A stretch of 64,000 nt of DNA from a virus (IMGVR_UViG_3300006147_000007), one strand, 5' to 3'. Shown: positions 30,844 through 37,024, counted from the stretch's first letter. Numbers and translations are program-made. The notes: generated by a model from the letters alone, not told the origin.

Positions 30844-30947
30844 ACTATATATTTATATTATTGTGGAGTAATACATAAGAGTTGTGGACACTCTTTTGGT
30901 TGTATGATAAAATAAGTCTAATAATAGTAATAGTAGGAGGGCATATA

Positions 30948-31427
30948 ATGAGAATTAAAAATATATGTTTTAATTGTAGCCAAATATCACGTAATAATGA
31001 TGAAATATGTCCAATATGTAATAATCGTTTTATTAAAGTTAACATAATTGATGCAATAAAACTTGACAATATGAGCGAGGAAAGTGTATTAAAGTGGATT
31101 GAAAGTAAAACAGGATATCCTATAAAAAATGAAGAACTAGCCAAACATCAAAAATATGTCAACGGTGTACTTCAACAATATCAATGTCAAAAAGAGCAGG
31201 AGAGGATTAATAAACAATTCGAAGATTACTCAGCAAAATTAGAACATGGACGACAAATTCTTGAAGAGCAGAAGTGTGTTCCGAAGTGTCCTATCTGTAA
31301 TTCAGCAAATATCAAAAAGATTTCTATTGGAACTAGGGCAGTAAAGACAGCAGCATTTGGTGTTTATGGTGCTGTCGACGATGCAGGGAAAACATATAAG
31401 TGTAGTAAATGTGGTTGTAAGTTTTAG
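30948..31427 (+). CDS. double zinc-ribbon protein (oppositely oriented gene inside the minus block)
   Basis: ATG after RBS TAGGAGGG; CFNCSQ...CPICNN at the N-terminus and CPICNS...CSKCGC at the C-terminus. Confidence 0.4.
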   Translation: MRIKNICFNCSQISRNNDEICPICNNRFIKVNIIDAIKLDNMSEESVLKWIESKTGYPIKNEELAKHQKYVNGVLQQYQCQKEQERINKQFEDYSAKLEHGRQILEEQKCVPKCPICNSANIKKISIGTRAVKTAAFGVYGAVDDAGKTYKCSKCGCKF

Positions 31428-31493
31428 ATACATATATATATTATCAAGTAATTCACATTTAAGAAAATAGCTAATAAGAAAGGATACCTGATT

Positions 31494-32984
31494 TTAGGCA
31501 TCCTGTTCAATAAAATTTATAGATGTGTCCATTTTATCACTTATGCTTTTATACATCTTTAAAGTACCATCAGACATATAAATTAAATTACAATTTTTGC
31601 ATTTACGTATATGAAGTGTATGTTTAAAGCTACTATCTTCTTTATAATATGTAACAAGTAATTTATCCATTTGTGTTTTAGTTTTGCATTTTTCACAAAG
31701 CTTTATTTTGTTTTTAGGAAGAACATGGACATTTACTTTTTGTTTGATTTCTTGAGTTACATCAGAAATAGGATTTTTAGATATCCATTTTTCTAATCTA
31801 TTTCGATGCATTTTCTCGTTCCATTGCATATAAATTATGTACACTTTATCGTTTATATGCAATTTTGGATTCTGAGCATAATAGGCGTTCTTTTTATCCT
31901 TAGGAATAGTTTGCTCTTTTAATGGTTTTTCATTGTCGATTTCCTTCAAAAGTGGGTAAGAAATATTTAAAGTATCTTTACACCAATCTCTATCTAAGAA
32001 ATTTTTAATATCATATGATAAATTTTTATTTTTAAAATACTCCTGAAAATAATTATATGCAACTTTGGAAACAGAATATTCTGGCTTTGATTCACTATTA
32101 TTATTTCCATCTTTTTTTGCATTTATCTTCATCTCTGATTTGTAATCGTATGTATTATCTTTGTATATTCCCAATGGTTCTTGACCATGTCTAGGATGTC
32201 TATCACTTTTTAAATATATTTTAACAGAAGAAGGAGATATTTTATAAATATCAAGCATTTTAAGTATAATTTTTATTTTTTGTGTTGTGCTTGTTGTTCC
32301 TTCCAAAATAATACCTGTATTTAAAAATCTTAAAGGATTGGTGATATTTTGAGCAATTTTATCATTTTCGTATACAATATATGACTTTTTATGCCCTTTT
32401 ATCTTATGCCAAGTAGCGATTTCTTTAAACTTATTACTGTCTTTATTATATAAAATTTCACATAATTTTAACCAAATTTCCTTATATGTTTTTACATTAT
32501 ATGTTTCACCTCTAAATGAGAAACTATGTGGGGTAGTATTTTCAAAATCAGAAGATAATGGATATGGTTTTGTATTATCAACTAGATATTTTTTATAATC
32601 TATTTTCCCTTCGCGTTCTTCAATCTCTTCATTTTCGTCTTCTGGAATATCTTCAATATCATTTTCTTCAATCAGTGTATCTTTAGATGTAACAACTTCT
32701 TCCATATTATTATCGAGAAAATTATTCAATTGATACTGAATATATTCTAATTGGTTATCTGCATTTTCAAAGTTATTGATGATTTCATCAGAATTTTTGT
32801 TTTTAAAATAGCTTTTGGCAATTGTAATATATTTTTCTGAAAGGGTAGCACGAGTATGCTCAATAATTTCAAGAAGATTATTTATATATTCATTCAAATC
32901 TTTAGCATGACTAGGTACTTCTTTTTGCAAAAAATCCATAAGTTTATCCATATCTGCCATCATTCGTTCCTCACAATCATCCAT
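31494..32984 (-). CDS. hypothetical 496-aa protein with an acidic N-terminus and a C-terminal Cys4 zinc finger
   Basis: CEKCKTK...CKNCN near the C-terminus; no catalytic motif recognised. Confidence 0.4.
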   Translation of the reverse strand: MDDCEERMMADMDKLMDFLQKEVPSHAKDLNEYINNLLEIIEHTRATLSEKYITIAKSYFKNKNSDEIINNFENADNQLEYIQYQLNNFLDNNMEEVVTSKDTLIEENDIEDIPEDENEEIEEREGKIDYKKYLVDNTKPYPLSSDFENTTPHSFSFRGETYNVKTYKEIWLKLCEILYNKDSNKFKEIATWHKIKGHKKSYIVYENDKIAQNITNPLRFLNTGIILEGTTSTTQKIKIILKMLDIYKISPSSVKIYLKSDRHPRHGQEPLGIYKDNTYDYKSEMKINAKKDGNNNSESKPEYSVSKVAYNYFQEYFKNKNLSYDIKNFLDRDWCKDTLNISYPLLKEIDNEKPLKEQTIPKDKKNAYYAQNPKLHINDKVYIIYMQWNEKMHRNRLEKWISKNPISDVTQEIKQKVNVHVLPKNKIKLCEKCKTKTQMDKLLVTYYKEDSSFKHTLHIRKCKNCNLIYMSDGTLKMYKSISDKMDTSINFIEQDA

Positions 32985-33334
32985 ATTTTGGAATAAATTA
33001 CCAACTTTAATTTATCATATCATAAATTTTGTCAAAATGCCATTCGAAACATTTGTTCTGATTTTGACTAATTCTTAAATTAGCTGACGATTGTAATGAT
33101 AGTTGGTTTGGAATCTTTTGCATTACAGATGGTTATGGTGTGATCAAGGTGGTTTTCAAACAAAAAATCATGACAGGTGAATATATAAATTACATTCATT
33201 GAATTATAAGAAATATAGTGATATAATTACTGATAGATGTAGATGTGTTGATGTGCAAGTTGATTAAACGTAGTAGTTGCTTAAAAAGACTTTTCTATTG
33301 GAAATTATCAATATTTATAGGTGGTGAATTTTTT

Positions 33335-35502: not shown

Positions 35503-35740
35503 AATCTTCCTCAGCGTTTCTAAAATATTCTTTTATACTTTTTATTGTTTTGTAATCTTGCTGATCAAAAATCTGCACTCTGCTAATTTTATCATCAATA
35601 CTAATAGAAAAATTATCATTGCTTAATATTGTTGTTCTATTATTTTTAAAATGTAAATCTAAATTAAACTCTTTAATTAAATTTTTTAAATAATCTTTAT
35701 TAGGAGAAAATTTATTTACAAATAATAAGTATTTGTACAT
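35495..35740 (-). CDS. hypothetical 81-aa protein
   Basis: Translationally coupled to the upstream gene (adjacent) and the downstream gene (8-nt overlap). Confidence 0.35.
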   Translation of the reverse strand: MYKYLLFVNKFSPNKDYLKNLIKEFNLDLHFKNNRTTILSNDNFSISIDDKISRVQIFDQQDYKTIKSIKEYFRNAEEDYG

Positions 35741-36052
35741 CTATATTTCCTCCTTATTTTTCTTTAATTCTTCTTTATTCATTTCATACATATCTAAATA
35801 AAAAAATGTATCTTCTATTTCTAAACAATCATTGTTATATCGTTCTTTAAATTGTAACATAGAATTCTTATATCTTGGCGAACCAGAAGCCAAAACAAGT
35901 TCTATAATTTTTACAACTTCTATATTAGGGTTTTCTTTATAAAATCTATCAATAAGTTCCTCAACTTTTTCATTAAATTTTGCTTTTTCTTCCAAAGCAA
36001 TTTTTATATCATCTATTAAATTTTTCTTCATATGTAATATGAATCCCTCCAT
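35741..36052 (-). CDS. hypothetical 103-aa protein (first gene of the four-gene operon)
   Basis: ORF with a Lys/Glu-rich helical composition; the start is uncertain because the RBS is weak. Confidence 0.35.
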   Translation of the reverse strand: MEGFILHMKKNLIDDIKIALEEKAKFNEKVEELIDRFYKENPNIEVVKIIELVLASGSPRYKNSMLQFKERYNNDCLEIEDTFFYLDMYEMNKEELKKNKEEI

Positions 36053-36499
36053 TTTCTAGATAATAATTTTCATTAATAAGATATTATCATAAAATTGTAG
36101 GAATGTCTAGCACAAAATTAAAAAATAAAAATATAATTCATTAAAATTTTACTGTTACTCAGTTCCTAGTAGCAATAGTTTTAACGTTGAATGCACATAT
36201 TTCGAAAAAAATATACAAAATTCGTTATTAAATTTGAATTTTAGAAGTAAAACTTGTCAAAAATTCTCTAATTTAGTATAGATGTTATAAGAACTGCTTA
36301 AACATGTACCATACATAATAGAAAAATTAACATCATACAATGATATGCGCACAAAAGCTGAAAATAACAATACTTCCATTGAAGTAGAGTTACATAGGCG
36401 AAATAATAAAGAGACTAAATAAGGCAGTCTTTTTATTTATCATATTTTTCTCCGTTTCTTCCACCTACGGCTAGGAGAAATCCTAACATTATCTTATCC

Positions 36500-37020
36500 A
36501 TTCCTACATAAAGTAGTTGCTATAAATGAATAGGAGAGCAGTATTACTCTTTACGGTTTTTTTACTCAGTCACGAGACAGACCGAAAACTGTGTGTGGAA
36601 CCCCTATTACAAGCCATTTCTGACTCAAAATCGTTTAGATTCTCTGAACACACCCATTATATACATAATAGGTTCCGTTGCTGATAGCCGATTTAGCTTT
36701 ACATTTCCAGTGTAACGCCTGGCACTTAGGGATTGCTCCCGTGCCTAAATAACCTTCATTTCTGAATTTGACTTTTCTTGCCGTTACCGACACCCTTTCG
36801 GGATACATTCACGCACACCGTTTCCAGTCACGTTGTAGTGGGTTATTTTATATATACGGTATTTTTATTCTTTCTTTCCAGCACTGAGAGATAGCAACTC
36901 CCAATTACGATTTATTTTATAGAACATCGTGAGGTGACTAGACTCACACATTCCTACCTTTGAAATTCATGTTTCATCCATAAATAACTTAGGTATGAAG
37001 GGCATATTCAAAACAAAAAA
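36500..37020 (-). ncRNA. candidate structured non-coding RNA in a roughly 0.9-kb ORF-free GC-rich region (identity unknown)
   Basis: No ORF of 60 aa or more on either strand from 36053 to 37024. GC is about 45-48%, against about 30% in the flanks. On the minus strand there are GNRA hairpins CCC-GAAA-GGG (about 36795) and GGGA-GCAA-TCCC nested in GGCAC/GTGCC (about 36721-36745), plus a long-range pairing GGAACCCCTATTA (about 36598) with TAATAGGTTCC (about 36669). Confidence 0.2.
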
Positions 37021-37024
37021 CAGT

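Follow-up and report, generated by a model that had tools for sequence, protein, structure and literature searches.

A 6.2-kb block within a giant phage tape-measure gene is probably a group I-type intron carrying accessory genes

In a 64,000-nucleotide stretch of viral DNA (IMGVR_UViG_3300006147_000007; hereafter the window), we analyzed a block of accessory genes at positions 30844-37024, which the original prediction had placed between two tape-measure genes. Our comparison with related phages indicates that the block is probably the interior of a 6,214-nt group I-type intron in one giant tape-measure gene, inserted just downstream of the first hydrophobic segment, after a glycine codon (GGU). 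In the simplest interpretation, a long late transcript would be spliced in cis to encode a tape measure of 3,052 amino acids (aa).

The layout of open reading frames (ORFs) in the block was as originally described, including the oppositely oriented genes and the ORF-free region. On one side the block is flanked by a 658-aa ORF (37025-39001, minus strand) with a PhageMin_Tail domain (PF10145, Pfam E value 8e-21) and a PHROG tape-measure match (E 6.5e-51), and on the other by a 2404-aa ORF (23629-30843, minus strand). Between them lie six minus-strand ORFs, two plus-strand ORFs and an ORF-free region of ~970 nt (36053-37024). Within 12.2-62.7 kb, no plus-strand ORF of 100 aa or more other than these two lies outside longer minus-strand ORFs, and the GC content of the block is 22-32% vs 30-44% in the flanking ORFs. 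The feature actually ends at the splice-site-like junctions 37055|37054 and 30841|30840 rather than at the ORF ends, so that the intervening sequence runs from 37054 to 30841 on the minus strand. It thereby takes in nine codons at the end of the 658-aa ORF (KCRISVRIS*), as well as the ATG with which the 2404-aa ORF begins. Exon 1 (37055..39001, minus strand) comprises 649 codons, contains the PhageMin_Tail region and ends ...FKNIG with GGT as its last codon, and exon 2 (23629..30840, minus strand) comprises 2403 codons plus stop and starts ATA TTC AAA (IFK).

Several lines of comparison point to a single gene. Similarity among the ~120 closest homologues of the 658-aa ORF stops at the same place, right after G.GAGLF..KN.G, and is followed by an immediate stop or by short Cys/Phe/Tyr-rich junk tails that fall into discrete classes. 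The homologues of the 2404-aa ORF all start with xIFKTF, where x is M, T, L or A, and any extension called further upstream is junk. Therefore, x is not always a start codon. In the window the ATG at 30843 is not preceded by a Shine-Dalgarno sequence, and a TAA stands four codons upstream of it. In the related locus L025 the codon ahead of exon 2 is ACG, an in-frame stop lies four codons upstream and there is no start codon, so exon 2 there would be untranslatable on its own.

In intron-less relatives one protein of 2,500-3,250 aa spans both window ORFs. Single ORFs in L012 (3249 aa), L023 (2536 aa), L022 and L016 match the two ORFs in order, and two of these four alignments pass straight across the junction. 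A query built on the predicted junction (...KNIG|IFKTFD...) aligned gap-free to the uninterrupted proteins P0298 (...QKDYG-ITKVWD...) and P0314, and the DNA of intron-less loci runs directly GGC|ATATTTAAA. Likewise, in the SPbeta-like phage phi3Ts the homologous PhageMin_Tail region lies inside one CwlP/YomI coding sequence of 2294 aa. Altogether, the site is interrupted in 46 of 58 distinct related loci and uninterrupted in the other 12. The isolated Enterocloster phage PMBT24 does not share the split tape measure. The alignments show, as a matter of descent, that the 658-aa and 2404-aa ORFs are two exons of one ancestral gene with an exact junction; the claim of two flanking tape-measure genes did not hold, as these are halves of one.

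The features of TP901-type, SPbeta YomI-like tape measures are present, with a PhageMin_Tail domain, a YomN-like gene upstream and distal tail genes downstream, and the identity to the phi3T/SPbeta tape-measure protein is 25%. Together with the group I-type intron reading, we consider it probable that the encoded product is a giant SPbeta/YomI-like tape measure of 649 + 2403 = 3052 aa. By the lambda rule of ~1.5 Å per residue, a tape measure of 3,052 aa would imply a tail of roughly 450 nm.

The sequences at the intron ends were then compared among the related loci. Exon 1 ends in GGU in nearly all interrupted alleles with an alignable glycine codon; the intron-less alleles with a glycine codon at the site (n = 11) have GGC, GGA or GGG, never GGT. 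About 25-50 nt into the intron, every intron class contains a guide sequence, 5'-(A/G)AAUAU-GCC-3', which in the window (a member of class A) is GAAUAUGCC at 37009-37001. The GCC of the guide pairs with the GGU end of exon 1 to form P1, in which the splice site is marked by a U·G pair. Outside class A, P1 is 6 bp long and covaries, with GUCGGU/GCCGAC in L008, L120 and L002 and UUCGGU/GCCGAA in L098. The exceptions L002 and L086 have an exon 1 that ends in GGC, and in L002 the guide has an A opposite this C (C·A instead of U·G). In classes A and B, exon 2 opens with AUAUU, with which the AAUAU part of the guide pairs (P10), and class C carries a compensatory change (exon 2 GUAUUU, guide AAAUAC). 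In 12 of 14 loci the intron ends in G, and the sequences ahead of this G represent at least six different contexts. A 5' exon ending in U (rarely C), P10 and a terminal G are all found, and by these comparisons the boundary rules at both ends show themselves to be those of a group I intron.

The structured ORF-free region of the original prediction corresponds to the catalytic core of a group I-type ribozyme (~610 nt; 36445..37054, minus strand) with P, Q, R and S elements and a P3/P7 pseudoknot. The class A structure was derived with RNAalifold and manual placement of P3 and P4, from an alignment of seven members (the window, L001, L003, L025, L029, L030 and L032). In the window (all minus strand) it comprises a P1-loop hairpin (37049-37034), P3 (36911-36907 with 36634-36630, AUCGU/ACGAU, forming the expected pseudoknot with P7), P4 (36883-36878 with 36684-36679, UGCUGG/UCAGCA) and P7 (36642-36637 with 36603-36598, GAAUCU/GGGUUC). 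In the class A alignment 96.8% of cells are paired, and 34 pairs carry double changes, compared to 17.3±2.5 after shuffling and 2-7 in slid controls. P7 covaries with GAGUAU/GUACUC and GAGCAU/GUGCUC; a bulged A in it precedes an invariant G-C pair, the arrangement of the guanosine-binding site. The window elements P GUGCUGGAAAG, Q UAUCAGCAACGG, R GUUCAGAGAAUCUAAACGAU and S GUAAUAGGGGUUCC look canonical, and the R element taken in the group I core test was GUUCAGAGAAUCUAAAC. Consensus P/Q/R/S motifs of group I introns are said to have been set out by Burke in 1987 and Cech in 1988.

An alignment of eight sequences defined the more compact class B, which has the same topology. In this class 88.7% of cells pair, and the compensatory pairs number 41 compared to 25.4±2.8. 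In its pseudoknot, compensatory pairs were found at five of six positions in P3 and three of four in P7, and L098 has a textbook P7 (GACUA/UAGUC). The core order P3-P4-P5-P4'-P6-P7-P3'-P8-P7'-P9 with the P3/P7 pseudoknot is found in both classes A and B.

Rfam scans of the window at gathering and permissive thresholds returned only two tRNAs, and scans of five related loci and L015 gave no match to the group I model RF00028. The class C ribozyme (L147), which sits at the same tape-measure codon, matched RF00028 over its full length with 31.8 bits (E 2.4e-6), below the gathering score of 50, and this alignment agrees with our manual assignments of P3, P4, Q, P6, R, P8 and S. As a control, the model scored the SPbeta introns at 92.4 bits (bnrdE) and at 41.8 and 36.9 bits (bnrdF), so that the class C score is comparable to that of the authentic bnrdF intron. 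We conclude that the ribozymes at the tape-measure site belong to group I but are divergent. Class A has long P2 and P5 insertions and an additional hairpin between P3 and P4, which probably defeat the RF00028 model. An nhmmer search with the class A core found only class A and near relatives, with one copy in the window.

Class A contains an extra helix of 9 bp, in which exon-1 bases -11 to -3 (37065-37057) pair with intron bases ~126-134 (36929-36921, CGAUGUUCU). The helix covaries with synonymous codons (AUCG/CGAU, ACUG/UAGU and AUUG/CAAU) and, on this pattern, is apparently an RNA-structure constraint on the protein-coding sequence. We infer that it holds exon 1 during transcription of the long cargo.

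Based on these elements, splicing across 6.2 kb could proceed as follows. Once transcribed, the core in the first ~610 nt would fold, and the GCC of the guide 5'-AAUAU-GCC-3' would pair with the GGU end of exon 1 to form P1 with its U·G pair at the splice site, while in class A the second, 9-bp helix would tie exon-1 bases to intron bases ~126-134. After attack by guanosine, the freed exon 1 would stay tethered while the polymerase transcribes the 5.6 kb of cargo. The AAUAU would then pair with the AUAUU of exon 2 (P10), the terminal G at 30841 would dock and the exons would be ligated. The ligated RNA, ...AACAUCGGU|AUAUUCAAA..., would encode ...FKNIG-IFKTF.... In RNA the expected junction would be ...AACATCGGT|ATATTCAAA..., and sequencing reads would join ...TTCAAGAACATCGGT to ATATTCAAAACATTTGACAGC.... 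On this reading, the region that separates the core from the 3' splice site tolerates insertions and has become a hotspot in which phages of this lineage keep and swap accessory, often defence, genes. These genes probably have promoters of their own; with own promoters, and with some of the genes antisense, the cargo could be expressed from the prophage.

The introns of related loci vary widely in length and content. Other delimited introns measure 1,058 nt (L015), 1,247 nt (L120), 2,097 nt (L098), 3,229 nt (L025), 5,603 nt (L008) and 9,410 nt (L003), and those of class C 2.0-4.7 kb. The smallest (L015) consists of the ribozyme and one antisense zinc-ribbon homologue only, and everything between the ribozyme and the zinc-ribbon gene varies among loci. 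Across ~150 related loci, only the zinc-ribbon gene and the gene for the 496-aa protein of the window recur, and the other window cargo is unique to the window and the identical contig L004. The anticipated variable accessory hotspot between conserved flanks was thus borne out by the comparison of related phages, in which the block contents are replaced between loci and the flanks conserved.

In these relatives, whose host genomes belong to Lachnospiraceae (Eubacterium, Lachnoclostridium, Parablautia and Agathobacter), the cargo includes known defence systems. The fully delimited introns of L003 and L008 carry genes for GmrSD_N/NsnA-like and TIR (ThsB-like) proteins and for Mrr_cat (E 1e-27) and DUF3800 proteins, respectively. 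Downstream of the same site in other relatives we detected Septu PtuA (6e-134) and PtuB (2e-68), a ThsB-like TIR protein (1e-35), a PemK-type toxin and, further, an IS110 transposase, Bro-N and S24/M78 regulators. The Septu and PemK-like genes probably lie inside the intron, a location that is only presumed because no exon 2 turned up in the 10-kb flank of these loci. The relatives therefore combine the marks of a defence hotspot: conserved flanks around interchangeable cargo, with known defence systems among it. Of the proposed hotspot for morons or defence cargo, the defence-type genes at the same place in relatives stand, and what does not is the position, as the island sits inside an intron and not between genes.

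In the window itself, a GmrSD_N/NsnA-type protein of 323 aa (43575-44546, minus strand; Pfam E 1.3e-15) is encoded among tail and structural genes ~4.5 kb upstream of the tape-measure gene. Members of this family are carried as cargo by the introns of L002, L003, L029 and L030. The phage therefore has a defence-type gene, outside the intron.

The gene closest to the 3' end of the window intron encodes a double zinc-ribbon protein of 158 aa in antisense orientation (30951..31427, plus strand), and is conserved adjoining the 3' end. Its real start is the ATG at 30951, behind a GGAGGG ribosome-binding site. In all seven completely delimited introns the last gene before exon 2 is an antisense ORF of 134-213 aa; five of the seven showed homology to the window protein by tblastn, and a sixth (L098) has the same zinc-ribbon pattern. 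A further 20 loci have a homologue on the downstream side of exon 1, and 19 of these homologues are antisense. The AlphaFold model (AF2, from a 37-sequence alignment) has a confidence score (pLDDT) of 90.6 and shows a zinc-ribbon/coiled-coil protein, with two zinc ribbons joined by a 49-residue helix. It shows no nuclease fold and gave no informative match in a PDB sequence search or in Foldseek searches against PDB and BFVD. The family is widespread, with 720 representative clusters at E<1e-3.

Between this gene and exon 2 lies the non-coding 3' terminal part of the intron (30841..30950, minus strand), which ends in G 30841, the G of the apparent ATG. It contains a hairpin (30895-30877) with the loop GUCCACA that overlaps a promoter-like site ahead of the zinc-ribbon gene (TGGACA-17-TAAAAT, plus strand, 30885-30913). 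The CUCCACA/GUCCACA hairpin-loop motif occurs just upstream of exon 2 in two copies in the window (30877-30913) and in three tandem copies in L003 (~11830-11930). Read on the opposite strand, the motif coincides with the -35 region of this promoter-like site. It could be an operator or an RNA element; it more likely belongs to the promoter or operator of the antisense gene. Loop-loop pairing of the CUCCACA hairpins at the 3' end with the terminal hairpin of the ribozyme was considered and dropped, since the partner motif is not conserved. L003 also contains two copies of a unit made of the antisense Zn protein, the 3' splice site and the start of exon 2 (11945-12748; 13596 onward), of which the first exon-2-like ORF (268 aa) is truncated. 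The duplicated unit could be left over from recombination or homing and may indicate how cargo builds up near the 3' end.

The remaining cargo of the window begins behind an AT-rich spacer 3' of the ribozyme (36053..36444, minus strand). Four tightly packed ORFs of 103, 81, 158 and 137 aa (34616..36052, minus strand; in the direction of transcription 36052-34616) abut or overlap by few bases, and the 137-aa protein is a multi-pass membrane protein. Promoter-like hexamers precede the cluster at 36238-36210, 36175-36146 and 36109-36081, within the spacer. These sites are only suggestive, because the counts in the promoter and terminator scan of the block were not above shuffled expectation. An acidic ORF of 56 aa follows (34366..34536, minus strand), then the gene for a membrane-anchored protein in antisense orientation (33335..34126, plus strand; 263 aa from ATG 33335). 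Its ORF as listed starts with GTG at 33245, and the protein gave weak matches below cut-offs only. The 496-aa protein (31494..32984, minus strand) has a C-terminal Cys4 zinc finger and is 34-54% identical to two adjacent ORFs of L003. The L003 homologue contains a SeqA-C-like domain (gene 9938-10675; Pfam SeqA E 4.7e-9 in the cargo set of the relatives); the window protein had no PDB or Pfam match.

No known defence system was recognized in the window block by family searches. PADLOC gave no matches for all eight block ORFs, the cargo had no match above cut-offs in Pfam, PHROG or NCBIfam and none in PDB, and the four-ORF cluster and the 56-aa ORF lacked any family match in Pfam, PHROG, PADLOC and NCBIfam. 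Pfam, PHROG and NCBIfam scans also found no transposase, TnpB, integrase or recombinase, and the domain scans of the cargo no homing endonuclease (LAGLIDADG, GIY-YIG, HNH, His-Cys box, PD-(D/E)xK or EDxHD). A megablast search of the block against the phage collection gave no match, nor did a tblastn search of it with a short junction peptide. Expression of the cargo and any defence role of the window's own genes are putative, while the variation of the cargo between related loci is directly apparent.

Several observations weigh against a splicing group I-type intron in the window. With the conserved guide, the P1 of class A is only 3 bp long, P3 and P4 are invariant within this class and hence consistent with the model but without covariation, and the 9-bp exon-binding helix is not a textbook group I feature. 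RF00028 did not match the window ribozyme even at E≤10, and in the L149/L131 lineage U, not G, stands ahead of exon 2. The pre-mRNA would have to be transcribed past a possible terminator behind the ribozyme, a terminator-like hairpin at 31504-31481 and an antisense gene in convergent orientation. Protein collections yielded neither a spliced transcript of this lineage nor a protein that spans the junction, and the cargo offers neither an endonuclease nor a transposase to account for the spread of the element. The main rival, which we judge rather unlikely, builds on part of this: the intron would be a relic that no longer splices across its enlarged cargo, and the 658-aa part with its terminal junk tail and the 2404-aa part translated from ATG 30843 would co-assemble as a two-piece tape measure. 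The terminator-like and convergent transcription signals inside the block, the missing spliced product and the miss by RF00028 would all fit such a relic, as would the in-frame ATG exactly at the exon-2 border of the window. However, this ATG has no Shine-Dalgarno sequence, the residue ahead of IFKTF is T, L or A rather than M in several relatives, and in L025 a start codon is absent altogether. Moreover, compensatory changes have kept the ribozyme helices in cargo-rich as much as in cargo-poor members, and the terminal G and the P10 complementarity, including the compensatory change in P10, are retained in introns of 1-9 kb.

The same comparisons bear on the other explanations. That two distinct tape-measure genes, one TP901-type and one giant, flank an ordinary intergenic island of morons or defence genes, with the structured region as an unrelated regulatory RNA, is suggested by two ORFs that look complete at first sight and by cargo that varies among relatives and includes defence genes. 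We nevertheless consider it very improbable, as intron-less relatives fuse both ORFs into one without a gap at the junction, the similarity ends at the same codon in ~120 homologues and the structured RNA pairs with both exon ends. An element acting at the DNA level, either an IStron-like or insertion sequence (IS)-like transposon or a recombinase-excised element that is removed from the DNA (e.g. on induction) to restore the gene, would account for the IStron-like architecture of 5' ribozyme, genes and distant 3' end (PMC4227781), and L029 has an IS110-family transposase downstream of the same site. This too is improbable in our view: the window cargo encodes no transposase, integrase or recombinase, the borders lack terminal or direct repeats, and the single copy in the window lies at what is always the same tape-measure codon. 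A chimeric assembly, or a junction of two co-resident elements as the original prediction had allowed for, is hardly credible, since the identical arrangement occurs on the independent contig L004 and the same architecture in dozens of independent contigs from metagenomes, metagenome-assembled genomes and isolates. A group II intron was rejected, as the element lacks a GUGYG start, domain V and a reverse transcriptase and has G instead of AY at its end. A split intein, ribosomal bypass or frameshift is ruled out by the stop-containing junk tails and the 6-kb gap with genes on both strands.

The proposed group I-type intron resembles known elements in part. In the IStrons CdISt1 and BcISt1, an IS200/IS605 or IS607 element is joined to a group I intron (Tourasse et al., 2014; PMC4227781). 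Like IStrons, the window intron has its ribozyme core at the 5' end, protein-coding DNA after the core and a distant 3' splice site, and is inserted in frame into a protein-coding gene, as IStrons are, including in genes of Clostridia phages, without target duplication. Unlike IStrons, it has no tnpA or tnpB, and its cargo is a variable multi-gene set of 0.5-8.8 kb on both strands rather than one IS. IStrons occur in many copies at a short target motif, whereas every copy recovered by our search with the N-terminal tape-measure protein sits at the same tape-measure codon, with one in the 64-kb window. Furthermore, IStron cores have P7.1/P7.2 hairpins (PMC4227781), which are not part of our structural model of the window ribozyme.

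The window intron shares the U·G 5' splice site with its P1/P10 guide, the terminal G, the P3-P9 core with P/Q/R/S and the location in an essential phage gene with classical phage group I introns, such as those of T4 td/nrdB/sunY, SPbeta bnrdE/bnrdF and phage structural genes. Classical phage group I introns are ~0.25-1.3 kb long and carry at most a homing endonuclease. With 6.2 kb here and up to 9.4 kb in relatives, the present introns differ from them by about tenfold in size, and the window intron contains several unrelated genes, some antisense, instead of a homing endonuclease. The extra exon-binding helix and the extra hairpin between P3 and P4 of class A also set it apart from classical introns, and RF00028, which recognizes the SPbeta introns, misses the window copy. 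As for the gene itself, the window protein is a giant tape measure with an N-proximal PhageMin_Tail region and an adjoining YomN-like gene, as are SPbeta YomI and CwlP; unlike SPbeta/phi3T YomI/CwlP, which are encoded by one uninterrupted coding sequence, the window gene is interrupted, and its product shows no lytic transglycosylase or M23 domain in Pfam.

The defence hotspots of P2 and P4 prophages are intergenic (Rousset et al., 2022; PMC9122126). The tape-measure site has in common with them the conserved flanks, the interchangeable cargo rich in anti-phage genes and the temperate phages as carriers. It differs in lying inside a coding sequence, where harmlessness would depend on RNA splicing, which would be another answer to a shared problem. 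A broader reading, which we put forward only tentatively and with about as much doubt as confidence, is that in SPbeta-like phages of Lachnospiraceae tape-measure introns became self-splicing 'safe-harbour' elements that carry islands of defence and accessory genes, with a ribozyme that renders multi-kilobase insertions in an essential virion gene harmless, a reinforced exon tether and the ever-present antisense zinc-ribbon protein as an intron-associated factor that controls splicing, cargo expression or spread. If so, the seven uncharacterized cargo genes of the window would be candidates for new anti-phage or host-interaction systems.

No report of defence cargo in a group I intron emerged from our literature search. 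If the window intron splices, it would be by far the largest group I intron of bacteria or phages known to us, and the first found with a multi-gene cargo that includes anti-phage systems. Temperate phages would then have a new way to hold and exchange defence islands, in an essential gene and neutralized at the RNA level, and the 'short' tape-measure calls in hundreds of gut-phage contigs would be explained. It would also provide a natural system to study the way in which a group I ribozyme locates a 3' splice site that lies several kilobases away, and would highlight the widespread zinc-ribbon family and the unannotated cargo genes as worth screening for defence.

A few further observations concern the tape-measure gene and its surroundings. 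The exon-2 proteins of many relatives (P0121-P0240) are cut short at about aa 186, 220, 286 or 302 and end in recurring junk tails such as GEDHIATIAYYNSYQTKMRYYSVQY, which suggests that the relatives may have further introns elsewhere in the tape-measure gene. Exon 2 of the window is itself uninterrupted. In phi3Ts (L153) the integrase gene yomM, yozP and two transposase or mobile-element genes lie between yomN and the tape-measure gene (2726-5505), and the neighbourhood of the tape-measure start is therefore insertion-prone in Bacillus relatives too.

The tail module around the block is SPbeta-like, with the YomN-like gene upstream and a DUF6558 tail protein and large fibre-like proteins, one of them 1422 aa long, encoded downstream. 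Directly after the tape-measure gene, a 224-aa protein (22821-23495, minus strand) has a weak Pfam match to Proteasome-subunit (E 2.9e-6, residues 11-74), which is unusual for a tail module. The GC skew of the window flips with the strand switch at ~12020-12180, where genes on the plus strand up to 12019 give way to genes on the minus strand from 12180. Finally, the two tRNA genes (62558-62651 and 63909-63991, minus strand; 94 and 83 nt, Rfam 44 and 54 bits) have long variable arms.

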